From Minisyncoccota bacterium (GTDB taxonomy: Bacteria; Patescibacteriota; Minisyncoccia; Phycocordibacterales; UBA9973), in the NCBI GenBank assembly GCA_041666225.1, contig JBAYHJ010000005.1, forward strand, positions 2,320-66,319: a stretch of 64,000 nt of DNA. The letters run 5' to 3'. Below the pieces are notes generated by a model. That model did not search any database, was not told the origin of the DNA, and worked only from the letters and a program-made list of their open reading frames with translations. The position numbers were made by a program, and so were the translations under genes. Within the stretch, counting starts at the first letter, position 1, and every line of letters starts with the position of its first letter. Shown piece after piece: positions 6,509 to 64,000 of this stretch.

Positions 6509-6669
6509 TTTTTTGATTATAATGATCTCATGGATAAAAAATCAAAAGCTTTGATAATAATTTTTCTGATTTTATTAATTATTTCTATGTCTTTTACGTA
6601 TTATCATTTTTTTATAATTCAAGATTTCAATATTTTGAATGATTAAGTTGGTTATTCAAAATAAATTCT

Positions 6670-7182: not shown

Positions 7183-7194
7183 TTAAAAAATATT

Positions 7195-10422: not shown

Positions 10423-11808
10423 TTAATCAATTTTAGATATTTCTGTTCTCAAATCAGTATCTTTTATTTCATACCCGAGTTCATTTATCTTTTTTCTTAA
10501 TTCATCACTTTTGCTCCAATCTTTTTGTTTGCGAGCCATTTCTCTCTCTTGTACTAATCCATTTATTTCACTTGGAATTATTTCTACTTCTATTTTACTT
10601 AAATTAAGACCGAGCACTTTATCAAAATCAAGTATAGTTGCGAGTTTGTCTTCATTTGAAATTCCATATTTAAATATCTCCCCAAGAGTTGCCAGAGCTT
10701 TGGGCATATTTAAATCATCATTAATATTATTTAAGAATCTTTCTTTGAGCTCTATATTCACAGTACCTATAGTAGTACCAAGAATTTTAATTTTATTTAT
10801 TAGATTATTGTAACCATTTAATGCAGCTCCCTCTATTTCAGAATTCCATTCCATATGTTTTCTATAATGGACTCCAAAAGTCGCGAAACGATAAACTAGA
10901 GGATTAATATTTTTATCAAGAAATTCACTTTTAAGAGTTAAAAAATTCCCTGTACTTTTAGCCATTTTTTCTCCATTTTTTATATTGAGAAAAAATCCGT
11001 GAATCCAATATTTGACCCAAGGTGATTTATCTGTAGCAGCTTCTGTTTGAGCTAGTTCATTTGTATGATGTAAATTAATGAAATCTTCTGCTCCACAATG
11101 TATATCAAACTGCTCTCCAAGGTATTTAACACTCATTGCAGAGCATTCTATATGCCAACCTGGGAATCCAGTACCCCAAGGACTTTTCCACTCCATTTGG
11201 CGTTTTGTGTCCAAGGGGGAGAACTTCCATAAAGCAAAGTCAGTAGGGTTTTTCTTCTCATCATTTATCTCAATTCGAGCACCTTCTTTTAATGATTCTA
11301 GTTTTTGATGTGAGAGTTTGGAGTAATCGCTAACTTTCGATGTATCAAAATATATACCATCACTGGTTTTATAAGTAAAACCTTTTTTCTCCAAAGTTTC
11401 TATCATTTGTATTTGTTCGGTAATATTGTCTGTGGCTTTACAAAAAACTTCAGGATAAATAATGTTTAAATTGGTTAAATCCTCTTTAAATTTAGTTGTA
11501 TAAAATTCTGCAATTTCCCACGCGGTTTTGTTTTCTTTAAGTGATTCTTTTTCAATTTTATCTTCACCCATATCACGGTCGCCAGTTAAATGACCAACAT
11601 CGGTAATATTCATAACATGTTTAACATTATATCCATTGTAAGCAAGGACTCGTTTTAATATATCTTCAAATATATAAGTACGCATATTACCCAAGTGAGC
11701 GTAGTTATAAACTGTAGGACCACAAGTATAAAGACCGACATCTTGGCCATTTATTGGAACAAATTCTTCTTTTTCCCTTGAAAGGGTATTAAATATGACT
11801 AAAGACAT
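10423..11808 (-). CDS. cysS: Cysteinyl-tRNA synthetase
   Basis: Class I HIGH motif in [21 protein letters not shown] variant KMAKSTGN, Zn-binding Cys in CGPT and HIECSAM. Confidence 0.9.
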
Positions 11809-39416: not shown

Positions 39417-39447
39417 GAGAATTGGGGTCAGAGAATTGGGGTCAGCC
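39417..39447. repeat. Left inverted doublet of the 11-mer attggggtcag flanking the Y1 transposase gene
   Basis: gagaattggggtcagagaattggggtcagcc; reverse complement of the right flank. Confidence 0.6.
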
Positions 39448-39470: not shown

Positions 39471-40145
39471 ATGCCAAGAATAAAAAGAATTAATGTTGGA
39501 GGATATATATATCATGTTTTAAATAGAGCAAACGCTCGTGTACAAATTTTTGATAACAAAGAAGATTATAAACTTTTTGAAAATATTTTAGAAGAAGCTA
39601 TTAAGAAATTTAATGTAAAGATTTTAGCTTATTGTATTATGCCAAACCACTGGCATATGGTTTTGTATCCAGAAAATGAAGGTGATCTATCTATGTTTAT
39701 GGGATGGCTTACAAACACCCACACAAGAAGATGGCATACAAAAAAGGGAACTGTGGGACAAGGCCATCTCTATCAAGGAAGATATAAATCATTTATTTGT
39801 CAGGATGATAATCATTTTCTCACTTTAGTTAAATATGTTGAACAAAATGCAATGAAGGCTAATCTAGTTAAAAAAGCAGAAGATTGGGAATGGTCTAGTG
39901 TCTGGAGAAGAGAAAATGGAACAATTAAACAGAAAGAAATTTTATCAGCATGGCCAGTATTTAGACCAAAAGATTATTTATCTTGGTTAAATACAATTTT
40001 ACCACAAGAAAAAGGAGAAATTATTGAAAAATCTATCATTAAGAGTATCCCTTTTGGAGAAGATGTTTGGGTTAATAATACTGTAAAGAAATTTGGATTA
40101 GAACAAACACTAAGGAAAGTTGGAAGACCTAAAAATGGTGGCTGA
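39471..40145 (+). CDS. Y1/HUH tyrosine transposase (IS200-like / REP-associated tyrosine transposase-like)
   Basis: HUH motif in IMPNHWHMVLY, catalytic Tyr region KYVEQNAMKANL, 224 aa. Confidence 0.75.
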   Translation: MPRIKRINVGGYIYHVLNRANARVQIFDNKEDYKLFENILEEAIKKFNVKILAYCIMPNHWHMVLYPENEGDLSMFMGWLTNTHTRRWHTKKGTVGQGHLYQGRYKSFICQDDNHFLTLVKYVEQNAMKANLVKKAEDWEWSSVWRRENGTIKQKEILSAWPVFRPKDYLSWLNTILPQEKGEIIEKSIIKSIPFGEDVWVNNTVKKFGLEQTLRKVGRPKNGG

Positions 40146-40184
40146 CCCCAATATCCTGACCCCAATATCCAATATCCAATATCT
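40140..40184. repeat. Right inverted doublet ctgaccccaat x2 plus aatatcc repeats
   Basis: ggctgaccccaatatcctgaccccaatatccaatatccaatatc; ggctgaccccaat is the exact reverse complement of 39435..39447. Confidence 0.6.
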
Positions 40185-46941: not shown

Positions 46942-47063
46942 GAACAAAGGCGTTTCTAAACATTAAAAGGGAGATAGGACACACTTCCGCAGAACAGTGT
47001 TCCGCGGCTCAGCTCAAAATTCGTTAAAAATTTAAAAAAACACTACATAAAATAGGAGTGTTT

Positions 47064-47957
47064 ATGGACATTAAAATGTTAGCAGAGAGGTTTTATAATC
47101 ACTCGTTACACATCCGTGGTTTCTCTAAGAATACGGTAAATAGATATAAAAGTATTATAGATCCGTATTGTGAATATTCTAATATATCAGAAATAGAACA
47201 GGTTTCAGAAAAAAACATAAGACAGATGTTTTTTTATGGTCGCACAGAGAGGAAGTGGTGCTCAGGAACTTTTATTTGCAACTACAAGGCACTTAAGGTG
47301 TTTTTTGACTGGTGTATCAAGGAAGGACATATCAAAAATAATCCTATGAAGTGTTTGGAGTTGCCCAAGCTAGAGAAACGATTACCACTAAAGTTAACAA
47401 AACAAGAGTCATCAAAATTATTGGAAGTAGTTTTTAATTATCCTTATGATTATGAATATTTAAGATATAGGAATTACGCAATTTTCTCACTTTTTTTATT
47501 TGCTGGACTTAGAAGGGCTGAGTTATTAAAATTGAAATTAACGAATATCGATATTGAGAATCAGACTATCTATATATCTCTAGGAAAGGGCAACAAGGAC
47601 AGGATTATTCCAATGAACTTTACTCTTACTGAAACCTTAAAAAGATATTTAGTGGAACGCAAAAGATTAAACAAAACATGCCCAGAGTTCTTTTGTTCTC
47701 TAAATCGTAACATGGGATATACAAATAATGGACTCAGGCGATTAGTAAAACAAATAAGAGAAGCATCTGGAATTAACTTCGCATGTCATAAACTTCGTCA
47801 TACTTTTGCTACGCTCCTTTTAGAAAATGGGTCAGATATTTATAGTATTTCTCGACTAATGGGCCATAGTGATATAAAGACGACTACAATCTATTTATAT
47901 GCCTCTGTAGAGCATTTAAGGGCACAGATGAGTAAACATCCACTAAACACAATATGA
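47064..47957 (+). CDS. int: Tyrosine recombinase / phage-type integrase (ATG 47064 preceded by aggag; track GTG at 47058)
   Basis: C-terminal catalytic HKLRHTFATLLLENGSDIYSISRLMGHSDIKTTTIYLY (H..R..H..Y), upstream R in LLFAGLRRAEL. Confidence 0.85.
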   Translation: MDIKMLAERFYNHSLHIRGFSKNTVNRYKSIIDPYCEYSNISEIEQVSEKNIRQMFFYGRTERKWCSGTFICNYKALKVFFDWCIKEGHIKNNPMKCLELPKLEKRLPLKLTKQESSKLLEVVFNYPYDYEYLRYRNYAIFSLFLFAGLRRAELLKLKLTNIDIENQTIYISLGKGNKDRIIPMNFTLTETLKRYLVERKRLNKTCPEFFCSLNRNMGYTNNGLRRLVKQIREASGINFACHKLRHTFATLLLENGSDIYSISRLMGHSDIKTTTIYLYASVEHLRAQMSKHPLNTI

Positions 47958-48117
47958 ATACGAAAATACCCCCTTTTACGTTAAGGAGGTATTCGTTCGA
48001 AGAAAACACAGGGGGGATAAGAGGGTAAATTTCTATTCATATGTCAGAATTTTTATATTTATATATAAAATATTTAATTATTGTATATAGTAGTTTAAAA
48101 TTACCTTCTTATCCATC

Positions 48118-50337
48118 TTATTCAGTTTCTTCTTTTCTGCCTTTAATCTTCACATTTCTCCAGCCCTGAATCTGTTTCTTGTCTATTGCTTTAGTTCCGT
48201 CAATGATATAACCACTATGATTAGGCAATTTTCTACCTAAAAATTTCTTATCAACAATTGGCAAATTATAGAATTTCGCGTATCGCGCGCACTCTTCGTA
48301 CATCGCATCTTTACTTACCCAAGCACTCGTTTCTTCTTCTAGGCAATCTTTAACAAAGTTAGCTACCATAGAGCCAGAAAGTAACATTTCTTTCTTTACT
48401 TCTTCTGGAGTTTTACCATAGCTAAAATCTTGCTTTTGTAAGATTTCACTTAATCCAAACAGTGATAAATTCAATAATCCAGATAATTCTTCTTTAGTTG
48501 TCATTTTATCTGTAAGGAATTTATCCACTCTTGTAATTTCCGCTAGGAACGGAACAATGATCCATCTGCTGAAATAGGCATCGTCATTGGTATCTTTTAC
48601 GTCTGGAATCTTATTACAAGCAAATGTTAATTTAGCGAAGTTCTGAAACTGAAATTGTTCTCCAAACTTCTTTTCACCGCTAATAATTCCACCACCAGTA
48701 GCTATCTTAAACAATCCATTGTCATTAATATCGCTGAAAGAAAGATCATCATATACATTTATATGTTTGTTATATAAGTGAGAAGATGCAAATTTGTCAG
48801 AGACTATCTTTTGTAGACTAATTCCTGAGACATTTTCTTTCCCTATAAATCTTTCGAACAATTTTATTAAGGTAGATTTTCCTGTATCTTTCTCTCCTAC
48901 AAAGATAATGGCTTTCTTAATGAAGTAATTTCTGTAGAGACAAAACCCGAACCATTCTAGAATTATTTTTTGATCCTCTGGCAAAATCTCATTCAGAAAG
49001 TTACTAATTACTGGACACATTGCATTCACATTGTAATTAACAGGAACCTTAGTGAAGAATAAGTATTCAGGACTATGTGGCATAAATTCTTTATTTTTAA
49101 TGTTAAATATTCCATTATTAAGATTAATGAAATTCTTATTAACATTAAAATCTTCTAAATCTGCCAAGGTTGAATCCTTAATCATTTCAATGATATTATT
49201 CTTGTTAGTAGTTGTCGTAAGCTCTTCTAATATTTCTTGAATTTCTGCCTTTATATTATTTAAGCCTAAAACGTAGATGCCATCTTTGTAGATGTAAATA
49301 TCGCGTATTCTTTCCCCGATGGTTTTAATGTGATATTTCTTAATGAGATATTTGGCAATTTCATATGATGTTTCTTTAGGGTGATTCAAGAAGTTACTCT
49401 TGAAATTTACATCTTCCGATATTTTTAGTACTAGATCTTTCTTCTTTTCCTGCTGGGATTGAATAGCAACCATAATTGTGTGTTCTCTATAATCCTTTCT
49501 TATCTGTGTTTTAACTCTTGCCCCAAGTGGTGAACTAAGCCATAGACGTTCCATTTGTTCTGCGTTGCAATCTGTCCAATAAGCTAGGTGCGAACATAAA
49601 GCTAAATCAGCCACAGAGTCATCGTTATTATGTGCAGTTGTATCACCGTTATACAGTAATTTAATTTTATCTCCTATTTTAGATGCGAACATTTTGGAAA
49701 GAATGATCTCATCGTCAATTGATGGAATAGCAACTGGAAATATGGCGGTTTGTTGCACTCCTTGCTTGCCCCATGGATAACCAATAATTGAGAGTAGTGC
49801 TATTGCTTCCTCTGGAGTAACTGTGCGGACAGGTAACGCTTCTTCAAGAGGGTTATTTGTCACAGTGAAATAACGACCTGATGTATAAGCTTCAAATGGG
49901 CCTTTCCTATTTGCTATAAGCTTAAGCGGTGCTGTAAGCGATAAATAAAGATGCAGTCCACTTTCAGACGGACTAATCTCTGTGTAAGTTCCTGCTTCCT
50001 TAATAAGCTTAAGAATATTCTCTCTTTCTTCATGCATGATTTCATTACCATCTAAACAATGATCTATATCAATTCCAAGAAGTAGTTGGTCTGGCGTAAA
50101 GACTATTCCAATACCTTGCGATACATTTACTACTTCTTCATACATGTTCCAAGTTGATGGGTTATCTGTTGATGCAGTTCTTCCATCTAAACCAATTGGC
50201 AACTTTGTAACTCGACCATCTTCTCCTGTTTCTTCATACCTCCAATTAACCCAGCACTTTTGTTCGCCAAAGGTTGATGCAAGTATGTTTTCATCTTCTT
50301 TTTTTTCTGTTTTTACTAATTCTTCTTCTATACTCAT
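48118..50337 (-). CDS. Bifunctional primase-polymerase (PrimPol N-domain) fused to D5/P4-alpha-like SF3 helicase
   Basis: N-terminal PrimPol motifs (GIGIVFTP...LGIDIDHC), Walker A FVGEKDTGKSTLIKLF, Walker B-like HINVYDD. Confidence 0.8.
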   Translation of the reverse strand: MSIEEELVKTEKKEDENILASTFGEQKCWVNWRYEETGEDGRVTKLPIGLDGRTASTDNPSTWNMYEEVVNVSQGIGIVFTPDQLLLGIDIDHCLDGNEIMHEERENILKLIKEAGTYTEISPSESGLHLYLSLTAPLKLIANRKGPFEAYTSGRYFTVTNNPLEEALPVRTVTPEEAIALLSIIGYPWGKQGVQQTAIFPVAIPSIDDEIILSKMFASKIGDKIKLLYNGDTTAHNNDDSVADLALCSHLAYWTDCNAEQMERLWLSSPLGARVKTQIRKDYREHTIMVAIQSQQEKKKDLVLKISEDVNFKSNFLNHPKETSYEIAKYLIKKYHIKTIGERIRDIYIYKDGIYVLGLNNIKAEIQEILEELTTTTNKNNIIEMIKDSTLADLEDFNVNKNFINLNNGIFNIKNKEFMPHSPEYLFFTKVPVNYNVNAMCPVISNFLNEILPEDQKIILEWFGFCLYRNYFIKKAIIFVGEKDTGKSTLIKLFERFIGKENVSGISLQKIVSDKFASSHLYNKHINVYDDLSFSDINDNGLFKIATGGGIISGEKKFGEQFQFQNFAKLTFACNKIPDVKDTNDDAYFSRWIIVPFLAEITRVDKFLTDKMTTKEELSGLLNLSLFGLSEILQKQDFSYGKTPEEVKKEMLLSGSMVANFVKDCLEEETSAWVSKDAMYEECARYAKFYNLPIVDKKFLGRKLPNHSGYIIDGTKAIDKKQIQGWRNVKIKGRKEETE

Positions 50338-52043: not shown

Positions 52044-53141
52044 ATGTATTTAATTAATAAAGACAAGAATGACATTGAACAGCTTGAAGAAGTAACTTTT
52101 AAATCAGCAGGTTTTAAAGAACGACAACATCTCCAAGAATGGATAGCAAAGAATCCTTTATCACTAGGTGAGGATTTTCTAATTATTCAAAAAGAATTTG
52201 CTGGTTTTGATGATACAAATGAAAGACTTGATCTTCTGGCTTTAGATAAAAAAGGCAATTTAGTAGTTATTGAAAACAAGCTAGATGATACAGGTAGGAA
52301 TGTCGTATGGCAATCACTAAAGTATGCTTCATATTGTTCAAGCTTAACTAGTGAAGGTATTGAAGATATTTTTGATGAGTATTTAAAAAAGAATGGAATA
52401 AAAGAAAGTGCTAAACAGTTACTAGAAGACTTCTTTGATGATGAAGATTTTAAAGAGAAATTAAATACTGGAAATAGTCAAAGACTAATAATGGTTGCTC
52501 ACGAATTTAGAAAAGAAGTAACCTCAACTGTTTTATGGCTCCTTAACTTTGGATTGAGAGTTCAATGTTTTAAAGTTACACCTTACAAGCTAGGAGAAAA
52601 GTTTCTTTTAGATTTTTCTCAGATTATTCCTATTAAAGAAGCTGAAGATTATATTATAAAAGTTGCATCAAAGAATAGAGAAGAAATTGGTAATCAAGAA
52701 GAACTAGAAAATAGATATTCAGTTAGATATGATTTTTGGACAGAATTCTTAAAAGAAGTAAATAAAAAGAATAGTTTATGTGCAAACTTAAGTCCTAGCA
52801 AAGATGCTTGGATTGGCATAGGTTCTGGAGTAAGTGGAATAAATATAAACTTAGTTGTTACTAGGTCCTACGCTAGAGTAGAAATATATATAAATAAAGG
52901 AGTAGCTCAAAATAAAGAAGTGTTTGATTATTTCTTTAAACAGAAGGAGCAGATAGAAAAAGACTTTGGAGCACCCCTAGATTGGGCAAGAATGGATGAT
53001 AAGGTTACTTGTAGAATTAAGTGGCAATTAGATAGTGTTAGCATCTTTGAAGAAGCAGATCATAAGAAAATGAATGACTTCTTGATTGACGGACTAGAAA
53101 GAATGAAGAAAGCATTTACTGAACCAATAAAAAACTTATAA
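52044..53141 (+). CDS. PD-(D/E)XK nuclease-fold protein, probably DUF4268-like, preceding hsdR
   Basis: RLDLLALDKKGNLVVIENKLD (D...ExK), C-terminal domain of the kind often found beside type I R-M genes. Confidence 0.45.
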   Translation: MYLINKDKNDIEQLEEVTFKSAGFKERQHLQEWIAKNPLSLGEDFLIIQKEFAGFDDTNERLDLLALDKKGNLVVIENKLDDTGRNVVWQSLKYASYCSSLTSEGIEDIFDEYLKKNGIKESAKQLLEDFFDDEDFKEKLNTGNSQRLIMVAHEFRKEVTSTVLWLLNFGLRVQCFKVTPYKLGEKFLLDFSQIIPIKEAEDYIIKVASKNREEIGNQEELENRYSVRYDFWTEFLKEVNKKNSLCANLSPSKDAWIGIGSGVSGININLVVTRSYARVEIYINKGVAQNKEVFDYFFKQKEQIEKDFGAPLDWARMDDKVTCRIKWQLDSVSIFEEADHKKMNDFLIDGLERMKKAFTEPIKNL

Positions 53142-53157
53142 TAATTAAAATAAATTT

Positions 53158-56157
53158 ATGGCTTTCAATGAAAATACAAGAGTAAAGATTCCAGCAATAT
53201 TACATCTATCCAAATTAGGATATGATTATATTTCTCTTTCAAATGCAAAGATAGATGAGAATACAAATATCTTCACTGATATATTTAGAGAGAGTCTTTT
53301 AAAAATAAATAAAGATGTTGAAGAACATGATATAAAGAAAACTTTTGATGAAGTTTCTCTTACTCTTGATAATGATGATCTCGGACAAGAATTTTATAAT
53401 AAGTTGATAGCAACATCTGGAATAAAACTTATTGATTTTAAAGATTTTAGTAATAACACCTTTAATGTAGTCACTGAACTTACCTACAAGAATGGAGATG
53501 ATGAATTCCGTCCAGACATTACGCTTCTTATTAACGGTATGCCTCTTGTATTTATAGAAGTTAAAAAACCTAATAATCAAGAAGGAATACTCGCAGAAAG
53601 AAATAGAATAAATGTAAGATTTAAGAATAAGAAGTTTAAAAAGTTTATAAACATTTCTCAGATCTTGGTATTTTCCAATAACATGGAATACGACTCTGAA
53701 TCAATCGTTCCTATCCAAGGAGCATTTTATGGGACACCATCATATCAAAATGCGAACTTTAATTGTTTTAGAGAAGAAGAAAAAATTGATTTAGCTAGGA
53801 TTTTAAAAGAAGAAGATGAAGATATTGAGAATATTGTATTGAAAGATAACAATTTATTGACAATAAAACATTCCCAAGAATTTATTACTAATAAAGATAA
53901 CAATACTCCCACAAATCGGATTTTAACTTCGTTATTTAGCAAAGAAAGAATAGCATTGCTTTTGAGATACAGTATTGCTTATGTTCAAGAAAAGAACGGA
54001 CTTGAAAAACACATAATGCGTTATCCTCAATTGTTTGCAACAAAGGCAATTGAAAATAAACTAGAAAATGGAATAACTAAAGGTATCATTTGGCACACAC
54101 AAGGTAGTGGCAAAACAGCACTTGCTTATTATAATGTAAATTATTTAACTGACTATTATCAGAAGAAAGAAATAATCCCAAAATTCTATTTCATTGTAGA
54201 TAGAATTGATCTAATGATTCAAGCTAAGAACGAGTTTGTAAATCGTGGTCTTACCGTGCATATAGTTAATTCTAAGGAAGAGCTTACGAAAGACTTTAAT
54301 TTATTAACAGCAATTCATAACCTCTCAGGCAAAAGAGAAATTACTGTTGTTAATATTCAAAAGTTTAAGGATGATACGGATGTATTAAAAACAATTGATT
54401 ATAATATAAATACACAGAGAGTTTATTTCTTAGACGAAGTACATAGAAGTTACAATCCTACAGGAAGTTTCTTGGCTAACCTTTTTAATTCAGATCGCAA
54501 AGCTATCATGATAGGGTTAACAGGAACTCCACTTATAACAAAAGATAGATTCTCCAGAGAAATCTTTGGAGACTACATTCATAAATATTATTACAATTCG
54601 TCTATTGCAGATGGATATACTTTAAAATTAATTAGAGAAGGTATAGAAAATAATTATAAAATTCAACTCGAAAAAACCTTAAAAGAGGTTGAAGTGATGA
54701 GTGGAGATGTAGAAAAACGAGTTATATATTCACATGAAAAATTTGTAGAGCCGATGCTTGAATATATAGTTGAAGATTTTATTAAAAGTAGAATAAGATT
54801 TGCTGACAATAATATTGGTGGAATGGTTGTCTGTGATAGTTCTGATCAAGCTAAGAAGATGTCTGAAATTTTCGAAAGAAAATATAAAGACACTGATAAA
54901 AATTTAACATCAGCTCTTATTCTCCATGATGTTGGAGACAAGGAAGAAAGAAAAAAAGAAATTGAAGATTTTAAAGCTGGTAAAATAGACCTCTTGTTTG
55001 TATACAATATGTTACTTACAGGATTTGATGCTAAACGACTTAAAAAACTTTATATAGGTAGAATAATCAAAGACCATAACTTACTCCAAACACTTACTAG
55101 AGTAAACAGACCATATAAAGAATTTAGATATGGATATGTTGTAGATTTTGCAGATATTCGTAAGGAATTTGATTCTACAAATAAGGCATATTTTGATGAA
55201 CTGCAACTAGAACTTGGAGATGAGATGAAGACATACTCTGGATTGTTTGCTTCCCAAGAAGAAATTGAGCAAGATATACAAGATATTAAAGAAATGTTGT
55301 ATCACTATGACTTAAATAATGCTGAAACTTTCTCTCAACAAATCAATCAAATAGAAGATCGTAGTGTTATATTAGAGCTAAAAAAGGCCTTAGAAAAAGC
55401 AAGAAATTTATATAATATCATTCGCTTACAAGGAAACTATGAATTATTAGAAAAAATTGATTTTAAAAAACTCAATCAGCTTTATAGTGAAACTTCTCAT
55501 CGTTTAGATTTACTTAATCTTAAGGATTCTCTTGCAAATAGTACTGATACAACAAATCTTTTAAATATTGCACTTGAAGACATAGTTTTCATGTTTCGTA
55601 AGGTATCAGAAGAAGAACTTATAATTGCAGATCAACTTAAAAACATGCTTCGAAAAACTCGTGAAGCACTTGGTGGAAATTTTGATCCAAAGGACCCACA
55701 CTTTGTTTCTTTATATGATGAATTAAAAAGATTATTTAATAAAAAGAATCTAGATGAAATTACACAAGAAGAGATGACTCAAAATATTGGTTCATTACAG
55801 CAAATCTACGACAAAGTAACAGAACTAAACCGCAGGAATAATTTATTAAAAGCAAAATATGAGAATGATGCGAAGTATGCTCGAATTCATAAGCGAATAT
55901 TAGAAAAAGGAAACATTACTACACGAGAGAGTGAAATAGGAGAAACTCTTTTAGATATTAAGAAACAAGCTGATGAGAAGGTATTACTTAACGCTAAATT
56001 ATTAAACAATGAAAGTTACTTTGATGGATTAATGATGCAAATGGTAATTGGAGGTTTTGAGAAAACAAATATTAAACTTGATTCTGAGTCAGCTAAATAT
56101 ATAAATAAATGCGTCGTAAGTGAGTACATTAATGAATTTCAAGGCACAATAGCATAA
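53158..56157 (+). CDS. hsdR: Type I restriction enzyme R subunit
   Basis: N-terminal HsdR nuclease domain, helicase motif I IWHTQGSGKTALAYY, DEAH box FLDEVHRS, motif VI QTLTRVNR. Confidence 0.9.
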   Translation: MAFNENTRVKIPAILHLSKLGYDYISLSNAKIDENTNIFTDIFRESLLKINKDVEEHDIKKTFDEVSLTLDNDDLGQEFYNKLIATSGIKLIDFKDFSNNTFNVVTELTYKNGDDEFRPDITLLINGMPLVFIEVKKPNNQEGILAERNRINVRFKNKKFKKFINISQILVFSNNMEYDSESIVPIQGAFYGTPSYQNANFNCFREEEKIDLARILKEEDEDIENIVLKDNNLLTIKHSQEFITNKDNNTPTNRILTSLFSKERIALLLRYSIAYVQEKNGLEKHIMRYPQLFATKAIENKLENGITKGIIWHTQGSGKTALAYYNVNYLTDYYQKKEIIPKFYFIVDRIDLMIQAKNEFVNRGLTVHIVNSKEELTKDFNLLTAIHNLSGKREITVVNIQKFKDDTDVLKTIDYNINTQRVYFLDEVHRSYNPTGSFLANLFNSDRKAIMIGLTGTPLITKDRFSREIFGDYIHKYYYNSSIADGYTLKLIREGIENNYKIQLEKTLKEVEVMSGDVEKRVIYSHEKFVEPMLEYIVEDFIKSRIRFADNNIGGMVVCDSSDQAKKMSEIFERKYKDTDKNLTSALILHDVGDKEERKKEIEDFKAGKIDLLFVYNMLLTGFDAKRLKKLYIGRIIKDHNLLQTLTRVNRPYKEFRYGYVVDFADIRKEFDSTNKAYFDELQLELGDEMKTYSGLFASQEEIEQDIQDIKEMLYHYDLNNAETFSQQINQIEDRSVILELKKALEKARNLYNIIRLQGNYELLEKIDFKKLNQLYSETSHRLDLLNLKDSLANSTDTTNLLNIALEDIVFMFRKVSEEELIIADQLKNMLRKTREALGGNFDPKDPHFVSLYDELKRLFNKKNLDEITQEEMTQNIGSLQQIYDKVTELNRRNNLLKAKYENDAKYARIHKRILEKGNITTRESEIGETLLDIKKQADEKVLLNAKLLNNESYFDGLMMQMVIGGFEKTNIKLDSESAKYINKCVVSEYINEFQGTIA

Positions 56158-56160
56158 TAT

Positions 56161-57783
56161 ATGACACAAGATTTTACAATTCAAACAAAACAATTAATTG
56201 ATAACCTTAAGGGTATTTGTTCCTCTTATGGTTTAGGAAATGATGGTAATGAATTTAAAATCATTACTCAAGTGTTCTTGTATAAGTTTATGAACGATAA
56301 GTTTGGGTATGAAGTAAAACAGATTGATAATAGATTGCAAAAGGCTGAAAACTGGGAACAAGAAATATCTAAATATACTAACAAGGAGTATGATATGTTA
56401 CTTCTAAAAATGAATCCAGATAGTGCTAAACTTAAAAGAGAGCATTTTTTATCTAGTCTTCATAACAGACAAAACGATGAGGAGTTTGCTAAAATATTTG
56501 ATGATACATTGCTTGATATTTCTATTTTCAATAAAGATATCTTCTCTGTTAAGACTGAGACTGGAGCTAAAATAAAACTTTTTGATGAATTAAGTAATTT
56601 TATTACAGATAGTTCAAAGAGAGATGATTTTGCAAGAGCACTTATTAATCAACTTATTAATTTCAGTTTTGAGAAAACATTTAATCAAAAGTTTGATTTC
56701 TTTTCTACAATATTTGAATATCTTATTAAAGATTACAATAAAGATGGTGGAGGAAAATATGCTGAGTATTACACTCCTCATGTAGTATCAAAAATAATGG
56801 CTTCTATTTTAGTAGATAGTCCTGTAAAAAATGTAACTTGTTATGATCCATCTGCTGGTTCTGGAACTCTCCTTATGAATTTAGCACATGCTATCGGTGT
56901 GGATCGTTGTACTATTTACTCGCAAGATATTTCACAGAAGTCATCTAGTTTACTTCGTCTTAATCTAATTTTAAATAATCTAGTACATTCTATTCAAAAT
57001 ATTATTCAAGGTGATACTTTACTTGCTCCATATCATAAAACTGGTGATAAACTAATGACCTTTGATTATATAGTCTCGAACCCCCCATTCAAACTAGATT
57101 TTAGTAAAGAAAGAGATGATATCGAGTCTAAACAGAGTTATGGTCGTTTTTTTGCAGGAGTTCCTAAGGTTACACCTAAAAATCCAGACAAGATGGCAAT
57201 TTATTTGCTTTTTATTCAGCATATTATGTTTTCTTTAGCTTCTAATGGGAAAGCCGCTATTGTTGTTCCTACTGGATTTATCACTGCACAAAGTGGTATT
57301 GAAATGAAAATTAGAGAGAAATTAATTAATAAAAAAATGTTACGAGGAGTAGTTTCTATGCCGAGTAATATATTTGCGACTACTGGTACAAATGTATCTA
57401 TTTTATTTATTGATAAAACTAATACAGATGGTGATGTAATTCTCATGGATGCTTCTAGTTTAGGAACGAGTGTAAAAGAGGGTAAAAATAAAAAAACATT
57501 ACTTTCCCCAGAAGAAGAACAATTGATTATTAGTACTTTTAATAAACGTAAAGTAGAAGAAGATTTTTCTGTGGTTGTTTCGTATGACCAGATAAAAGAG
57601 AAGGGCTATTCTTTTAGTGCTGGGCAATATTTTGAGGTAAAAATTGAGTATATTAATATAACTCAAAAAGAATTTGGAACAAAAATGAGCAGATATAAAT
57701 TAAACCTTGCAGAATATTTCAAACAATCTCATGAGTTAGAACAAGAAATTAAAAAACAGTTGGAATTGTTAAAATATGAATAA
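56161..57783 (+). CDS. hsdM: Type I R-M N6-adenine DNA methyltransferase subunit
   Basis: HsdM N-terminal domain, AdoMet motif DPSAGSGTLL, catalytic NPPF (VSNPPFKLDF). Confidence 0.9.
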   Translation: MTQDFTIQTKQLIDNLKGICSSYGLGNDGNEFKIITQVFLYKFMNDKFGYEVKQIDNRLQKAENWEQEISKYTNKEYDMLLLKMNPDSAKLKREHFLSSLHNRQNDEEFAKIFDDTLLDISIFNKDIFSVKTETGAKIKLFDELSNFITDSSKRDDFARALINQLINFSFEKTFNQKFDFFSTIFEYLIKDYNKDGGGKYAEYYTPHVVSKIMASILVDSPVKNVTCYDPSAGSGTLLMNLAHAIGVDRCTIYSQDISQKSSSLLRLNLILNNLVHSIQNIIQGDTLLAPYHKTGDKLMTFDYIVSNPPFKLDFSKERDDIESKQSYGRFFAGVPKVTPKNPDKMAIYLLFIQHIMFSLASNGKAAIVVPTGFITAQSGIEMKIREKLINKKMLRGVVSMPSNIFATTGTNVSILFIDKTNTDGDVILMDASSLGTSVKEGKNKKTLLSPEEEQLIISTFNKRKVEEDFSVVVSYDQIKEKGYSFSAGQYFEVKIEYINITQKEFGTKMSRYKLNLAEYFKQSHELEQEIKKQLELLKYE

Positions 57784-59035
57784 GAAATATAAATTAAAAG
57801 AATTATGTGAAATTACTTCAAGTAAGCGAATATTTGCACATGAATACGTAGAAAAAGGTATATCATTTTTTCGAAGTAAAGAAATTATTGAATTAGCTAA
57901 TGAACAAAAAATAGATGAGCCATTATTCATTAGTGAAGAAAGATATAATGAGATAAAGAAAAAATTTAACATTCCTAAAAATGGAGATATTTTACTTTCT
58001 GCAATAGGAGCTAATCTCGGAATCCCTTATTGGGTTAATTTGGATTTTGAATTTTATTTTAAAGATGGAAATGTTATTTGGTTTAGAAACTTTTCATCAA
58101 AATTAGACAGTGAGTATTTGTTTTGGTGGATGAATACAAATTATTTTTTTAAACAATTTACAGATAAAGCAATTGGAGCTGCACAAAAAGCTCTCACTAT
58201 TGATTCATTAAATGAATATTTAGTTGAAGTTCCAAGTTTAAAAGAGCAAAGAGATGCTATAAAAATTTTTAGAGCAATATCAAAAAAAATTATAGTAAAC
58301 AACAAAATCAACGCTGAACTAGAAGTAATGGCAAAAACCTTATATGATTACTGGTTTATACAATTTGATTTTCCAAATAAAAATAATAAACCTTATAAAA
58401 ATAGTGGGGGTAAAATGATTTACAGTAATGAATTAAAAAAAGAAATCCCTGAAGGATGGGAAGTTGATAGAATAAATAAAAAGATTAAAATCGAATCAGG
58501 CTTTCCTTTTAATTCTGATGATTATTGCGAAAATGGAAAATATCAAATTATAACAATTAAGAACGTACAAGATGGATATTTAGATACTTCAACAGTAGAT
58601 AAAATTGACCTTATTCCTGATAATATATCAGATTTTTGTGTATTGGAAATTGGTGATGTCTTAATGTCTCTTACAGGCAATGTTGGAAGGATGTGTTTTG
58701 TGGATAAAGAAAATCTACTTCTAAACCAAAGAGTTGGTAAGTTGCTTGGAGAAAAAGAATTTATAATTTATACTTATTTATTTTTTAAGAGACCAGAAAA
58801 TCAAAAGAGGTTAGAAAAAATAGCTGGTGGAAGCTCACAGTCAAATTTAAGCCCAATAAATGCAGTAAAAGATTTTTTCATTATACCTTCACAAAATATA
58901 TTAAATGATTTTTCAAAAATTATCATCCCTATTTTTGAACAAATAATAAGAAATAAAAAAGAAAACAGAGAACTCTCAGAACAACGAGATTGGCTCCTTC
59001 CAATGCTAATGAACGGACAAGTAACCGTTAAATAA
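57776..59035 (+). CDS. hsdS: Type I R-M specificity subunit with two target-recognition domains
   Basis: Duplicated TRD architecture with conserved central and C-terminal coiled-coil repeats; overlaps hsdM by 8 nt. Confidence 0.85.
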   Translation: MNKKYKLKELCEITSSKRIFAHEYVEKGISFFRSKEIIELANEQKIDEPLFISEERYNEIKKKFNIPKNGDILLSAIGANLGIPYWVNLDFEFYFKDGNVIWFRNFSSKLDSEYLFWWMNTNYFFKQFTDKAIGAAQKALTIDSLNEYLVEVPSLKEQRDAIKIFRAISKKIIVNNKINAELEVMAKTLYDYWFIQFDFPNKNNKPYKNSGGKMIYSNELKKEIPEGWEVDRINKKIKIESGFPFNSDDYCENGKYQIITIKNVQDGYLDTSTVDKIDLIPDNISDFCVLEIGDVLMSLTGNVGRMCFVDKENLLLNQRVGKLLGEKEFIIYTYLFFKRPENQKRLEKIAGGSSQSNLSPINAVKDFFIIPSQNILNDFSKIIIPIFEQIIRNKKENRELSEQRDWLLPMLMNGQVTVK

Positions 59036-59040
59036 CAAAT

Positions 59041-59724
59041 ATGAACCCACTTAAAACAAATGGCTTAATAATTCAAAATTTTCCACAAAAGGAGTATGAG
59101 GCCATTCATTCAATTTTAAGTAGTAAGTATGCAGAAAGAAAAGAATATGAGCATTTTGCAGGAGCTTGGAATGCTGTGGCGTACAGATATAAAGCTGCTG
59201 TTGATCACGGACAAGATTTCATTGAATTATTCAAATTACATGGAACAGCACCACAACCAGAAAAAAGATATCTACAAGAAAAAGCTCTTTTTGATCACTT
59301 CAGCTCTTGCTTTTCTGTTTTTGAATCAATATGCTATGGATTTTTTGCTATAGGGTCTATTATTAAACCAGAATATTTTTCTATTATTGATCCAGTAGAT
59401 CAACGAAAAATATCCCCAGAGACAACTAAGAGAATCTTTCAAGGTGCATTTCCAGATGAGCAAATTACTAAAACGTTAATAGAGTTAACTTCTGATCCAG
59501 AATTTGAAAATATTAGGAATACTAGAAATATTCTTACTCACAGAACAGCACCAGGAAGAAAGATTTATCTTAATATAGGAAAGGATGAATCACCGCCAAC
59601 TGAATGGAAATTGAATAATAAACCCTTAGATGAATTTATAGTTAAATCAAACGAAGAAAATATGAAAAGACTTTTAAATAATTTATTAAATACAGGTGAA
59701 GAATTTTGTAAATCATATCTATAA
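59041..59724 (+). CDS. Hypothetical protein with HEPN-like Rx4H motif, directly downstream of hsdS
   Basis: All-alpha composition; NIRNTRNILTHR contains R-x4-H; 6 nt after the hsdS stop. Confidence 0.4.
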   Translation: MNPLKTNGLIIQNFPQKEYEAIHSILSSKYAERKEYEHFAGAWNAVAYRYKAAVDHGQDFIELFKLHGTAPQPEKRYLQEKALFDHFSSCFSVFESICYGFFAIGSIIKPEYFSIIDPVDQRKISPETTKRIFQGAFPDEQITKTLIELTSDPEFENIRNTRNILTHRTAPGRKIYLNIGKDESPPTEWKLNNKPLDEFIVKSNEENMKRLLNNLLNTGEEFCKSYL

Positions 59725-59728
59725 TTAT

Positions 59729-60691
59729 ATGGCACATAAAAATATTATAAAAATACCAAATAAGATAAAAGAGCAATTAGAAACATTTAGTCAGGATGAT
59801 GTTGTTGTAGCTTGTGTAAAATATATTCCTAATGAAGAAATTAATAAATATAAACACTTAAACATACAATACATTAATGGAGAACTTATTGTTCCTCCTT
59901 CAGATACCCCAGATCCTAATGCTGGAAAATTCTCTCGTGCTAATTTAGAGGGATTTGAAAAGAAAAGAACAGATTTACCAAAAATTTCAAAAGATTTTAG
60001 TTTTGATGCTCCCAATTGGGGTGGGTATGGGACTCATGAGGTTTCTCACACACGAGAAGTATTTCAAAAAGATTTTTATCCACCAAAAGAAGTTGAACTA
60101 AAAATTGAACAAGTAGAAAAAAGAGAGAATGGTTTTAAAATTAAATTTTCCATAGAACAAGTAATCAATCGTCGTACTCCAAATTTTGAGAAAGAACTGC
60201 TTTATAACCTAAATTTATTACAAGAAAATGTTGGGATGATAGATGTATTTCCAAGTATTGCTACCCTAGCAGATTATGCAAAGACCGTTTATATAGATTG
60301 GGAAATATTACCACCTGGAACTGTTGATGAAATCATAGAAGCTTTATTAAAAAATCAAAGAACAGGAAGTATTACACCTGATCAGATAAAAATAACGAGA
60401 GAAAGAATAGCTGTTATGGCAAAATTGAAACCTACTGTATATATAAAAGGTATGACTGGTTTTTTAAGGTATTTTGGTGCAAAGTTTGGAGAGGATTTTG
60501 TTGTTTTTGAAAATATAAAATATGGAAATGCTTTATATATAATGTATGATTCTTGGGAGAAGTTAAGTAAGAAGAGTAGAACAGAGTTATTAAGTGGACC
60601 AAGAGAAGGATTTGATCGTATAGAACATAAAAATGGATGGGAAAATAATTTAGCAAAATTTGTTAGAGAATATAGGTATAAAAATAAATAG
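59729..60691 (+). CDS. Hypothetical protein, 321 aa (start at ATG 59729)
   Basis: Clean ORF starting 5 nt after the preceding stop; no motif. Confidence 0.4.
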   Translation: MAHKNIIKIPNKIKEQLETFSQDDVVVACVKYIPNEEINKYKHLNIQYINGELIVPPSDTPDPNAGKFSRANLEGFEKKRTDLPKISKDFSFDAPNWGGYGTHEVSHTREVFQKDFYPPKEVELKIEQVEKRENGFKIKFSIEQVINRRTPNFEKELLYNLNLLQENVGMIDVFPSIATLADYAKTVYIDWEILPPGTVDEIIEALLKNQRTGSITPDQIKITRERIAVMAKLKPTVYIKGMTGFLRYFGAKFGEDFVVFENIKYGNALYIMYDSWEKLSKKSRTELLSGPREGFDRIEHKNGWENNLAKFVREYRYKNK

Positions 60692-60698
60692 TAATTAG

Positions 60699-61448
60699 AT
60701 GTCTGAATTTTATAATCCAAATAGAACAAGAAATATATATGACCCTAAAAGCAAGGAGCCTTTTAAACTATCTCGTTCAAAGATAGAGAACTTTATGCAT
60801 TGTAAAAAATGCTTTTACTTGGACCGTAGATTAGGAATTGGACAACCACCAGGATATCCTTTTAATTTAAACACCGCTGTGGATACCTTGCTTAAGAAAG
60901 AATTTGATATACATAGAGCCAAACACAAGACACATCCTCTAATGAAGGCGTATGGACTCAATGAGGTGCCTTTTAGTCATGAAATGATAGATGAATGGAG
61001 GGAGAATTTTAAAGGAGTGCAGTATCTTCACAAGCCTACTAATTTTATCGTTACTGGAGCAGTGGATGATTTATGGCAAGATGAAAATGGAGAAATTATT
61101 GTAGCAGACTATAAAGCTACAAGCAAAACTTCGCAGGTTACACTTGATGCTGATTGGCAGGATGGATACAAAAGACAAATGGAAATATATCAATGGCTAC
61201 TTCGTCACAATGGATTAAAAGTTTCAAATACTGGTTACTTTGTATATTGTAATGGAAAGACTGATAGAGAAGCATTTGATGGAAAGCTAGAATTTGATAT
61301 TGATCTATTGCCATACACAGGAGATGATTCATGGGTGGAAGGAACACTTAATGAGATTAAAGAATGCCTTGATGGACCTATGCCAGAGCCAGATTCTGAA
61401 TGTGATTTGTGTAATTATAGGAAAGCAGTTAGTGAAGTTGAAAAATAA
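60699..61448 (+). CDS. Cas4-like / RecB-family PD-(D/E)XK nuclease with Cys cluster (no CRISPR array nearby)
   Basis: N-terminal CKKCFYL, GAVDDL (motif II), EIIVADYKATSK (E-x-K with DYK), QMEIYQW (QxxxY), C-terminal CLDG...ECDLCNY. Confidence 0.6.
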   Translation: MSEFYNPNRTRNIYDPKSKEPFKLSRSKIENFMHCKKCFYLDRRLGIGQPPGYPFNLNTAVDTLLKKEFDIHRAKHKTHPLMKAYGLNEVPFSHEMIDEWRENFKGVQYLHKPTNFIVTGAVDDLWQDENGEIIVADYKATSKTSQVTLDADWQDGYKRQMEIYQWLLRHNGLKVSNTGYFVYCNGKTDREAFDGKLEFDIDLLPYTGDDSWVEGTLNEIKECLDGPMPEPDSECDLCNYRKAVSEVEK

Positions 61449-61452
61449 AATT

Positions 61453-61683
61453 ATGCATATCCCAGATGAAAAATTCGTTAGATTTAAAGAAATCTTTAAA
61501 GAAGAATTTGGAGAGGATGAATTTAATAAAATGACTAATAAACAATTATTTGAAAGTGCAACAAAACTTATAACTTTAATGGAGGCTGTTTACAAACATC
61601 AAAATTCTCATAATAATAAGGAAAGGATAGATAAAGCTTTTGATGTTTTATTTGATGAAACATTAAAAAATTATCGTAAATAA
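61453..61683 (+). CDS. Small hypothetical protein, 76 aa
   Basis: ATG 61453 five nt after the nuclease stop; helical; no motif. Confidence 0.35.
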   Translation: MHIPDEKFVRFKEIFKEEFGEDEFNKMTNKQLFESATKLITLMEAVYKHQNSHNNKERIDKAFDVLFDETLKNYRK

Positions 61684-61735: not shown

Positions 61736-62839
61736 ATGTCAATTCGAGACAGTATAGGGTCATATAAAATTCAAAATCTTGGTGGCACAAGAGCCAGTAA
61801 AGGTTTCTCATATCAAAATCATTGGGCGATTAAGAAAATTATAGAATTACATACCTCCGAAAAAGATTATGTTGTTTTATTTGAAGTATATGATGATGTA
61901 AGTGTTCTTGATAGTGAATCAAATCCTAGTAAAATTGATATTTATCAAGTTAAAAGTACCCAAAACCAAACCCCTGTAACTCTTTCAAAATTATGTCAAA
62001 AAACTAAACAAGAAAAATCAATTTTAGCAAAATTATTTTTAACTAAGGTGCAATTGCCAAAAGAATTAAATAACATTGTTGAAAAAATGTTTATTGTATC
62101 AAACTCATCTTATCAATGCAAAACTAAATTTCATTCATCTACTAGCTCTGAAATATCAGTAGGAGATCATTATAGATCTGAGTTAAAAAGTAAAAAAATT
62201 GATGAACTATCAAAGCAATCTGGAATACAAAATTTAGAAATACAGAAATTATTAAATATTACATTTTTAATAAAATCTCCTATATCTTTTGATGAACCAT
62301 ATAGACAAATAAGAGATATGCTCCAAGACTTTTTTAAGACAAAATTTAAAGAATTTTTTGATGTTACACCTTTTTATAATCAGTTATTGGTTGAAATTGA
62401 GAATAGATGTGAATCAGAGAAAATTGATGGATACGATGAAACAATAAAAAGTAAAGCTATTACAAAAAAATGGTTAGATGGTATACTAAAAGAAATAACT
62501 CCTGATCTTAAACAACAATTAAGAATGATAGAACAGGAATTAAGTAAAGAGGGTTGGGGTCCAGAAAAGATCATTAAACTAGGAGAAGGGTGGCGGCAAA
62601 TGGAAATAGATAATTTTAGCGATAAGGAATATTTTAATGGTAAACTAATAACAGTGTTAGATACTTTGATTGTAAAATTTAATTTAAATTATAAAAAATA
62701 TAGTGATATCACCGATATTATTTTAAAAGAACTAAAAGATAATTATTATGATATTATTGAAAATAGAGAAGATTATTATATAAAAGCATTAATATTATGG
62801 AGAACCTTAGATCATCGCATAAAAACCTTAGAAAATTAG
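61736..62839 (+). CDS. Protein with N-terminal Cap4/DUF4297-like nuclease domain (Lamassu LmuA-like effector candidate)
   Basis: KGFSYQNHWAIKKIIEL, DYVVLFEVYDDVSVLD and IDIYQVKST resemble the GFxYQ ... D ... QxK signature. Confidence 0.45.
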   Translation: MSIRDSIGSYKIQNLGGTRASKGFSYQNHWAIKKIIELHTSEKDYVVLFEVYDDVSVLDSESNPSKIDIYQVKSTQNQTPVTLSKLCQKTKQEKSILAKLFLTKVQLPKELNNIVEKMFIVSNSSYQCKTKFHSSTSSEISVGDHYRSELKSKKIDELSKQSGIQNLEIQKLLNITFLIKSPISFDEPYRQIRDMLQDFFKTKFKEFFDVTPFYNQLLVEIENRCESEKIDGYDETIKSKAITKKWLDGILKEITPDLKQQLRMIEQELSKEGWGPEKIIKLGEGWRQMEIDNFSDKEYFNGKLITVLDTLIVKFNLNYKKYSDITDIILKELKDNYYDIIENREDYYIKALILWRTLDHRIKTLEN

Positions 62840-62863
62840 TAAAAAGTTTAAGTAAAAAAGAAC

Positions 62864-64000
62864 ATGAAAAAATTCGTATTGGAAGAAATAAAACTAATAT
62901 CACAGAAAGAACAAAGAGCAAATAATTTTATCTTTGATAAAGGATTTAATGTTATAACTGGGCAGAATGGTGTTGGGAAGTCTCATTTGATAAAAAGTAT
63001 TCCGTGGGCTTTTGGGGCTGAACCATCAACTTTACATCCCAATTGGATAAAAGCTGATATAAGTGTTATTGTTAAATTTTCAATTAATAAAGTGCGTTAT
63101 AAAATATTAAGGACAAATAAAACTTTCTTAGTTTTTGATGATGAAAATAATTTAATTAATCAATCTGTTAGTAGTATAACTAAAGAATTATCTCCTTTTT
63201 TATCAGAATTATTTGATTTTGATTTGAAGCTTCCATTAAAGGAAGGAGAGAAAAAATTAACACAGCTTACACCAGCCTACTATTTTTCACCTTTTTATGT
63301 TGATCAAGATAGTGGCTGGACAAATTTATGGCAAAGTTTTAAGAATCTTCAAATGTTTTCGAACTGGAGAAGACCGTTGCTTGATACTTTTACAAATATT
63401 TTATCTTTAGAACTACAAAAAACAAAAAACAGTATTAGTGAGGAGAAAATGAGATTAAAAGAGTTCGAGAATAGGCAAGATTTATTTAATAAGACCTTTG
63501 AAAACACCGAAGAGGAAATTGTTAATTTAAATTTTAATATTAATTTTGATAATTATAAAAAAGAAATTGATGAATTAATAATAAAACTAGATGGTTTGCA
63601 AAAAAAAGAATTTGAATATAAAGAATCAATAAGAAATTTGTCAAACAAAAAGGTTATTCTCGAAAATCAAGTTAATATAGTTGAATCGTCTATAAACTCT
63701 TTAAACAAAGAACACAATTTAATTAATAAAATAAAAGATCATATATTAGAATGTCCCACCTGTGGTGCTGAGTATGAAAATTCTTTTATTGATAAGTTCA
63801 ACATAGCTCAAGATTTATATACTGCACAAGAATTATTGGTTGATTTAAGAGAGGACCTTAATAAAATTAATAATAATATATTGGAAATTAAAAATATAGA
63901 TATTGATAATTCAAAAGAAATAAATAAATTAAATGATATTTTAAATAAAAAAAATCATAAAGTAACTATAAATGAAATAATTAAGAAGGAAGGAGAAAAA
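62864..64000 (+). CDS. P-loop SMC/Rad50-like ATPase with coiled coil and CPTC zinc-hook-like motif; 3' end beyond window (LmuB-like candidate)
   Basis: Walker A GQNGVGKS near N-terminus, long heptad region, CPTCGAEY in mid coiled coil; no stop before 64000. Confidence 0.6.
   Translation, partial: MKKFVLEEIKLISQKEQRANNFIFDKGFNVITGQNGVGKSHLIKSIPWAFGAEPSTLHPNWIKADISVIVKFSINKVRYKILRTNKTFLVFDDENNLINQSVSSITKELSPFLSELFDFDLKLPLKEGEKKLTQLTPAYYFSPFYVDQDSGWTNLWQSFKNLQMFSNWRRPLLDTFTNILSLELQKTKNSISEEKMRLKEFENRQDLFNKTFENTEEEIVNLNFNINFDNYKKEIDELIIKLDGLQKKEFEYKESIRNLSNKKVILENQVNIVESSINSLNKEHNLINKIKDHILECPTCGAEYENSFIDKFNIAQDLYTAQELLVDLREDLNKINNNILEIKNIDIDNSKEINKLNDILNKKNHKVTINEIIKKEGEK

Follow-up and report, generated by a model that had tools for sequence, protein, structure and literature searches.

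Comparison across genomes indicates that two adjacent genes, here termed A and B, form a real, mobile and co-inherited unit, which in a Minisyncoccota bacterium (NCBI GenBank assembly GCA_041666225.1, contig JBAYHJ010000005.1) lies directly downstream of a type I restriction-modification (R-M) operon. The stretch analysed, referred to below as the window, comprises 64,000 nucleotides (nt) of that contig (positions 2,320 to 66,319, forward strand), and coordinates are counted from its first letter. We propose, with a confidence slightly short of even, that the pair is an abortive-infection or toxin-antitoxin-like cassette in which A, a HEPN-superfamily ribonuclease (RNase), would be gated by B. 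An earlier note on this DNA had described four genes after hsdS as one module. The four open reading frames (ORFs) were indeed present on the plus strand where the note had placed them, with only small numerical corrections, but the module dissolved on comparison: only A and B co-occur elsewhere, the third gene, C, was accompanied by neither of them at any of 80 other loci (a metagenome sample), and the fourth, D, was found again only in the closest relative, L175 (L numbers denote comparison loci). We hold with good confidence that the unit consists of A and B, with C and D standing apart from it. The genes are as follows (aa, amino acids).

59041-59724, plus strand: gene A, 227 aa, a protein assigned to the HEPN superfamily and the predicted RNase effector of the A-B pair
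59524-59541, plus strand: the Rx4H codons of A (R162-N-I-L-T-H167), the predicted catalytic motif
59729-60691, plus strand: gene B, 320 aa from its ATG, the partner of A, from a large unannotated family
60699-61448, plus strand: gene C, 249 aa, by its motifs a solo Cas4-like PD-(D/E)XK iron-sulfur (Fe-S) nuclease
61453-61683, plus strand: gene D, a lineage-specific ORF of 76 aa

Gene B had been given as 321 aa; the ORF is real and encodes 320 aa from its ATG, and an alternative GTG start at 59696 would extend the product to 331 aa. The spacing is as tight as had been claimed (6 nt from hsdS to A and then 5-8 nt), with corrected values of 5 nt for hsdS-A, 4 nt for A-B, 7 nt for B-C and 4 nt for C-D, and 52 nt separate D from the next gene, LmuA. 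Judged from this spacing, co-transcription of the genes is plausible; a promoter and terminator scan from hsdS to LmuA gave counts not above those of shuffled sequence in this AT-rich DNA. The quoted motifs were all located (RNILTH at residues 162-167 of A; GAVDDL at 120, IVADYK at 134 and QMEIY at 160 of C). The exact A and C proteins are recorded as MFA6515099.1 and MFA6515101.1 from a Candidatus Paceibacterota metagenome-assembled genome.

We observed that A was followed by B within 0-17 nt at every one of more than 20 loci inspected. Each of the first three long contigs carrying B had, directly upstream of it, a gene of 228-236 aa with no Pfam match and 39-51% identity to A. With each species represented by a single genome, a scan yielded 80 loci encoding B; in 18 non-redundant loci, every one within the B clade above about 45% identity, a homologue of A immediately preceded B in the same orientation, and a further 63 loci carried B without A. 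The pairing was also present in L089, L090, L091, L092, L093, L094, L175, L180 and L181. When searches were begun from A, B lay downstream at every locus looked up, and A was never seen without B, which fits a dangerous enzyme that needs a keeper. Furthermore, the pairwise identities of A and B were correlated (r = 0.94; 153 pairs from 18 loci), with B the more conserved protein in 97% of the pairs (mean identity, 56% versus 46%).

The pair was found in Patescibacteria, Alpha- and Gammaproteobacteria, Gemmatimonadota, Dadabacteria and Acidobacteriota, and the identity of B between phyla, at 55-60%, implies horizontal spread. On a contig binned as a Nanoarchaeota archaeon (L010, 1-1133), A-B is about 85% identical to that of the window, reflecting either cross-domain transfer or mis-binning. 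In Rhodopseudomonas palustris CP076678 (L180, 6671-7623), the B gene after A is split into two frames by a frameshift, which may mark a pseudogene or a sequencing error.

Is A a HEPN protein? The earlier note had made this likeness depend on conservation of the Rx4H motif, and the motif, with the typical polar asparagine after the arginine, proved invariant in 40 of 40 homologues spanning 35-92% identity to A; R162, N163, H167, R168, P171, G172, W189 and K190 are among the invariant residues. The AlphaFold model of A (predicted local distance difference test score, 90.8) has long helices at residues 34-67, 73-108, 153-166 and 198-226, and the description of the protein as all-helical holds throughout the prediction save for one short hairpin. 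The Rx4H motif lies at the end of the third of these helices, running into the loop before the last one, and an acidic residue conserved in at least 90% of the homologues, E95, lies in the second, so that the predicted fold is a four-helix up-down bundle with the motif ending helix 3 and the acidic residue in helix 2. HEPN domains have been described as carrying Rx4-6H with a polar residue (N, D or H) after the arginine and an insert between helices 2 and 3 (PMC3710099). Because the motif position, E95 and the fold match this published description, we place A in the HEPN superfamily, on the strength of the alignment and the model, and within no curated family; its only recurrent Pfam match is HEPN_Cthe2314 (PF18730), around the Rx4H region, in 6 of the 40 homologues (best E = 2.6e-4). 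The same features predict that A would be an RNase. As the earlier note had remarked, the 227-aa protein has no ATPase domain, none being found with Pfam, NCBIfam or PADLOC.

Gene B belongs to a large family. Its homologues numbered 682 at E ≤ 0.001, all of about 320 aa and all unannotated, and a B profile run against 1.84 billion cluster representatives (50% identity) returned 1,569 at E ≤ 0.001, of which 279 reached E ≤ 1e-30. These proteins are of uniform length (about 320 aa), the best 150 matches include no domain fusions, and the A-linked clade collapses to one of the 1,569 representatives. In an alignment of 78 sequences reaching down to about 32% identity, H103, Q165-E166, R226, F260-E261-N262, Y265-G266-N267-A268, Y270, W276, S280, R284, R297, H300 and W304 are at least 95% identical, a pattern that suggests a constrained site. 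B gave neither a sequence-family match nor a fold match, ten divergent homologues likewise had no Pfam match, and PDB sequence searches with the single sequence and the profile of B returned no meaningful match. Because B is larger than A, more conserved and mostly independent of it, it is probably more than a mere antitoxin, with some activity or sensing function in its own right.

Could the association with restriction enzymes be more than an accident of this contig? In three independent lineages, A-B immediately follows the terminal gene of an R-M operon, of type I twice and of type III once. In the first, a type I hsdR-M-S operon precedes A-B with a 5-nt gap (the window, L007, L089 and L175); in Sphingomonas mesophila, a type I hsdM-S-R operon precedes it with a 168-nt gap; and in a Saccharibacteria genome, a type III operon (SNF2, DUF4391, Mod, Res) precedes it with a 2-nt gap. 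An hsdR gene lies 3 kb from A-B on the opposite strand in L181. Other neighbours are integrases, serine recombinases, a Rep protein, an Mrr-type enzyme, a Schlafen-like gene, a PIN gene or unrelated genes. The R-M coupling proposed earlier for the first gene thus gains suggestive support from adjacency in three lineages but does not extend to most A-B loci, which have no R-M genes within 10 kb. In a Magasanikbacteria locus (L018, 2-1291), the gene for a 429-aa DUF2779 protein runs 4 nt into the start of A, so that the order is DUF2779-A-B; we considered this protein as a homologue of C, and the BLAST match was not significant (E = 0.2).

Where B occurs without A, the flanking genes include Peptidase_S24 (6), helix-turn-helix (HTH) proteins (4), ImmA/M78 (3), UvrD-type helicases (3-5), ResIII, methylases, transposases and SMODS, and the PADLOC names among them include RmrA-, CapH/CapP- and GajB-like. 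In L029, L039, L043, L052, L053 and L074, mostly from Patescibacteria, B is immediately preceded on its own strand by a gene for a LexA-like S24 repressor, and in L040, L049 and L076 such a gene lies within 2.5 kb of B; this proximity hints at SOS-type control of B. In about five genome loci, the gene immediately before B encodes a UvrD/GajB-like helicase. On the Sinorhizobium terangae plasmid pCB3126_2 (L179, 1-5918), B follows a Gabija-like pair of AAA ATPase and helicase by 105 nt and lies near a Lit-family phage-exclusion gene.

How might the pair act? Drawing on the gene structure, the pairing, the co-evolution, the motif conservation, the predicted fold and the genomic contexts, we infer an RNase activity for A, its binding and gating by B, a trigger and a defence phenotype. 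A and B would form a complex in which B holds the RNase of A silent. An infection or DNA-damage signal, perceived by B or via it, would free A, and the freed enzyme would cut cellular and/or phage RNA (transfer, ribosomal or messenger RNA), so that growth stops. A-B could in this way serve as a second line behind a neighbouring restriction system. The cassette would move between phyla on mobile or defence islands and would have landed several times at the 3' end of R-M operons.

Several results weigh against this proposal. B is more conserved than A and most B genes stand without A, unlike a simple antitoxin, so B may act by itself and A may be an accessory. The HEPN_Cthe2314 match of A scored 14.5 bits against a cut-off of 27.1, and the scores of all its homologues fell below the curated cut-off; PDB sequence searches with single sequences and profiles of A returned no meaningful match. 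No known defence-family model in PADLOC-DB v2.0.0 or NCBIfam release 20 matches A or B; together with D, they hit no family at E ≤ 1 in the former and none in the latter, and gave nothing significant in Pfam, NCBIfam, PADLOC or PHROGs. Homologues of B were found in no phages and on only 8 plasmids. Finally, R-M genes lay within 10 kb at 4 of 14 independent long A-B loci and at 4 of 46 B-only loci, a comparison that is biased by R-M queries drawn from A-B loci and is not relied on here; with only 4 of the 14 linked, the restriction linkage of A-B is recurrent but not obligate.

Could A-B instead be a plain toxin-antitoxin addiction cassette, with A the toxin and B the antitoxin, that stabilizes mobile islands, including R-M systems, and has no direct role against phages? 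The genes are tightly coupled, with A always accompanied by B; toxin-antitoxin systems commonly employ HEPN toxins (PMC3710099); and A-B adjoins integrases, recombinases and a Rep protein. On the other hand, at 320 aa, more conserved than its partner and mostly stand-alone, B would be atypical for an antitoxin, and it has no similarity to the MNT antitoxin or to any other known antitoxin family. We regard this alternative as unlikely. Many toxin-antitoxin systems also defend against phages, and an addiction function therefore overlaps with the gated RNase that we favour.

A second alternative makes B the main actor, a protein linked to DNA damage or the SOS response with a repair, regulatory or effector function, and A an add-on specific to one clade, in which case the pair would not have to serve in defence. 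The A-linked clade accounts for just one of the 1,569 clusters of the B family, LexA-like S24 repressors directly precede B in six loci and are found no more than 2.5 kb away at another three (Patescibacteria for the most part), ImmA/M78, CapH/CapP-like and UvrD-like genes are among its neighbours, and the invariant polar residues H103, E166, R226, E261, N262, R284, R297 and H300 suggest an active or binding site. On the other hand, no repair or regulatory fold or family was detected in B, and its neighbours are heterogeneous, with many defence and mobile genes rather than repair operons. LexA-like and ImmA-like regulators, moreover, also control defence systems and prophages, which weighs against B as the main actor. 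We consider this account unlikely. It is quite unlikely, in our estimate, that B founds a new and widespread conflict or immunity family (at least 1,500 clusters in many phyla) that senses a DNA-damage or restriction cue, and that one clade of it recruited a minimal HEPN RNase to yield an ATPase-free, PrrC-like second line behind restriction systems.

How does the pair compare with known systems? It resembles PrrC and RloC in the HEPN-type Rx4H motif with a polar residue after the arginine and in being encoded, in some lineages, beside type I R-M genes, and a second-line role is plausible for it. However, PrrC and RloC have an N-terminal ABC/AAA_13 ATPase fused to the HEPN nuclease, which the 227-aa A lacks; A is located 3' of hsdS and not among the hsd genes; B, its constant companion, has no counterpart with PrrC or RloC; and the consistent embedding of those proteins in type I R-M loci is not shared by A-B, since most of its loci have no R-M genes within 10 kb. 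AbiV, AbiD/F, AbiJ, AbiU2, HEPN-MNT and HepS are similar to A-B in small size and two-component design, but no PADLOC model for any of them matches A, B lacks the nucleotidyltransferase match, by sequence or fold, that a HEPN-MNT partner would show, and gaps of 4-5 nt leave no room for an RNA antitoxin. A 2013 survey gives Cthe_2314, of the HEPN_Cthe2314 family, no conserved operon partner (PMC3710099), whereas A always has B. A few A-less B loci adjoin an HTH protein with an ImmA/M78 protease or CapH/CapP-like regulators, as in RosmerTA and CapH/CapP-regulated genes; RmrA-like genes made up about 5 of the 119 genes flanking distant B homologues, but the window has no RmrA (HTH plus ImmA protease) and B matches no RmrT model. 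Taken together, A-B appears to be a conflict cassette built on a HEPN protein, with a partner from a new family; searching the literature by accession and by topic turned up no publication on either family.

Gene C is another matter. The description of C as a Cas4-like Fe-S PD-(D/E)XK nuclease outside a clustered regularly interspaced short palindromic repeats (CRISPR) context was borne out by its RecB motifs, its cysteine ligands and a PDDEXK_1 match (50.9 bits against a cut-off of 22). The Pfam Cas_Cas4 score was marginal (22.9 against 22.7), and the Cas4 equivalog TIGR00372 was below cut-off (31.6 bits against 65). In 30 homologues, D123, D124, D137-Y-K139, Q160 and Y164 are invariant, as are C35, C38, C223, C235 and C238. 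The 64-kb window contains no CRISPR-like array, as had been stated for the part in view, and no cas family was found among the context genes scanned from 39.5 kb to its end (the first 39 kb were not scanned), among the annotated neighbours of C in L085-L088, L175 and L176, or among the 25 families most often encoded upstream of C at 80 loci. The earlier note had asked whether the nuclease might group with phage exonucleases from a prophage remnant; it did not, its best PHROG match being a family of unknown function and the exonuclease PHROGs weak. PDB sequence searches with the single sequence and the profile of C gave no meaningful match. More than 8,000 homologues of C exist, and they are 70-94% identical across several Patescibacteria lineages. 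C resembles the solo Cas4/PDDEXK_1 nucleases (Hudaiberdiev et al. 2017, PMC5704561) in its RecB motifs, its conserved cysteines and its position outside CRISPR-cas; those are abundant in the Candidate Phyla Radiation and sometimes adjoin R-M genes, as C does. It differs from them in falling below the TIGR00372 cut-off and in that its third C-terminal cysteine precedes the CxxC (C223...C235-x2-C238) instead of following it. By these sequence characters, C belongs to the typical gene complement of Patescibacteria as a conserved, stand-alone Cas4-like Fe-S nuclease, and is most likely a DNA-end-processing enzyme.

Does C work with the neighbouring R-M enzymes, degrading or processing restriction fragments like RecBCD or ACE1, and so belong to the locus rather than to A-B? 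It stands immediately after R-M or defence genes in several loci: after an AAA_13 ATPase in L085, after SNF2 plus an MmeI-like gene with a 1-nt gap in L086/087, after hsdR in L088 and in L169, and in L176. Solo Cas4 genes are found beside R-M genes in small-genome DPANN archaea and are abundant in the Candidate Phyla Radiation (PMC5704561), and the Argonaute-associated Cas4-family enzyme ACE1 offers a precedent (PMC12094033). However, the genes upstream of C in the 80 metagenome loci were mostly unrelated and mixed (cyclophilin, 6; DHH, 3; sigma-70, 2; few R-M genes), with hsdR at 1 of the 80 in a direct search, and the high conservation of C across lineages suits a housekeeping repair nuclease. 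A partnership of C with R-M is rather improbable on this evidence; the first three loci had hinted that R-M operons might have C as a constant 3' partner, which the sample of 80 did not bear out. The locus L176 reads GmrSD-hsdR-hsdM-hsdS-[538 aa]-C, with a protein of 538 aa (6365-7981) and no Pfam match filling the slot that A-B occupies in the window. We considered it as an A-B fusion, and it matched neither the A nor the B profile.

It is highly improbable that A-B-C-D is co-transcribed with hsdRMS as one restriction-coupled abortive-infection system, the reading put forward in the earlier note, in which the type I enzyme would license A as an anticodon nuclease of the PrrC/RloC kind, with B to D as accessories. 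The genes do share one strand and a spacing of 4-7 nt with no terminator-like site from hsdS to LmuA (the scan counts being no higher than in shuffled sequence), the order hsdRMS-A-B-C recurs in L007, L089/L090 and L175, and C also follows other R-M operons (L086, L088, L169 and L176). However, these recurrences all come from one close lineage (A 82-98% identical), and C follows A-B only in these nearest relatives and not in the close L005, L006 and L092; A-B occurs without C or hsd genes in L092, L002, L004 and many others, and C occurred without A-B at all 80 of its other sampled loci; D is absent downstream of C elsewhere, L175 excepted; A lacks the ATPase domain of PrrC and RloC; and in L007 an unrelated membrane gene sits between B and C. 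This gene of a Parcubacteria relative (10969-11484) encodes a TspO-like tryptophan-rich membrane protein of 171 aa.

Divergence from L175 also separates the genes. Synonymous divergence (dS) was 0.07 for A, 0.07 for B, 0.52 for C, 0.22 for D and 0.14 for LmuA, a 7-fold difference between C and A-B, and these unequal values mark the locus as a recombination mosaic in which the history of A-B differs from that of C. Similarly, hsdS of the window (57776-59035) shares only 54% nucleotide identity with that of L175 (1539-2780), whereas the adjoining A and B share 98%, a contrast indicating that the specificity subunit was swapped. The breakpoints of the mosaic coincide with junctions between genes that span just 4-7 nt. 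Rather than a four-gene system, the region is a series of independent defence-island genes stacked one after another.

Gene D is the weakest of the four ORFs, though probably a real gene. Its exact sequence is absent from a collection of 15 billion proteins, and its sole known homologue, of 73 aa, lies between C and LmuA in L175 (85% identical; ratio of nonsynonymous to synonymous divergence, 0.29); small genes after C in other loci showed no similarity to it. Since L007 and L089 lack Lamassu and also lack D, D may belong with the Lamassu cassette.

The surroundings of A-B are rich in defence genes, in the order integrase, primase, PDC-S11, type I hsdRMS, A-B-C-D and Lamassu.

47058-47957, plus strand: tyrosine integrase (Pfam)
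48118-50337, minus strand: D5_N/DUF5906 primase-helicase (Pfam)
52044-53141, plus strand: PDC-S11 candidate defence gene, with a NucS-like N-terminus and DUF4268, 16 nt before hsdR
53158-59035, plus strand: type I R-M operon (hsdR 53158-56157, hsdM 56161-57783, hsdS 57776-59035), ending 5 nt before A
61736-64000, plus strand: Lamassu (LmuA 61736-62839; SMC-type LmuB from 62865, running off the window)

The type I operon recognized in the earlier note was confirmed, with hsdR, hsdM and hsdS all matched by Pfam and PADLOC; hsdS has Methylase_S (Pfam) and Specificity_I (PADLOC) matches, and the hsdR and hsdM homologues in L007, L089 and L175 bear HSDR_N/ResIII and N6_Mtase. That note had missed the genes at either end, namely the PDC-S11 candidate before hsdR (PADLOC PDC-S11, E = 1e-150; Pfam DUF4268, E = 3e-35) and LmuA of Lamassu after D (PADLOC, E = 2e-46; also Pfam Cap4_nuclease). 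The start of LmuB carries the Walker A motif GQNGVGKS, and L175 has an SMC_N LmuB in the equivalent position. The core genes for RF-1 and ribosomal protein L25 lie just upstream of the integrase and primase pair (47058-50337). The integrase and primase-helicase likely form the boundary of an integrated element that carries defence genes, and the whole 47-64 kb region may be its cargo. Farther upstream, an IS200-like Y1 transposase gene (39471-40145) has 14-nt tandem repeats on either side (39417-39445 and 40142-40170), and the two repeat sites are roughly reverse complements of one another.

These results correct the picture of the locus, placing the Cas4-like gene outside the A-B cassette as a stand-alone nuclease typical of its lineage. 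Candidate two-gene defence cassettes are common. The size of the B family, its lack of annotation and the repeated docking of A-B on different restriction operons make this one worth a test, and carriers of homologues include the cultivable Sphingomonas, Bradyrhizobium and Rhodopseudomonas. Should A-B prove to work as a defence or toxin cassette, it would add a new type of partner to the HEPN RNase systems and would give the first functional handle on the B family, which is unannotated in the databases and for which no solved fold gave a match. Because A-B abuts restriction operons of different types, it would also offer a tractable case for how a second-line, RNA-targeting response is coupled to restriction. 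To our knowledge, the immunity of Candidate Phyla Radiation bacteria is largely unstudied; if A-B does act as an ATPase-free, PrrC-like second line, it would represent, in these bacteria, a new architecture linking restriction to RNA-targeting abortive infection.

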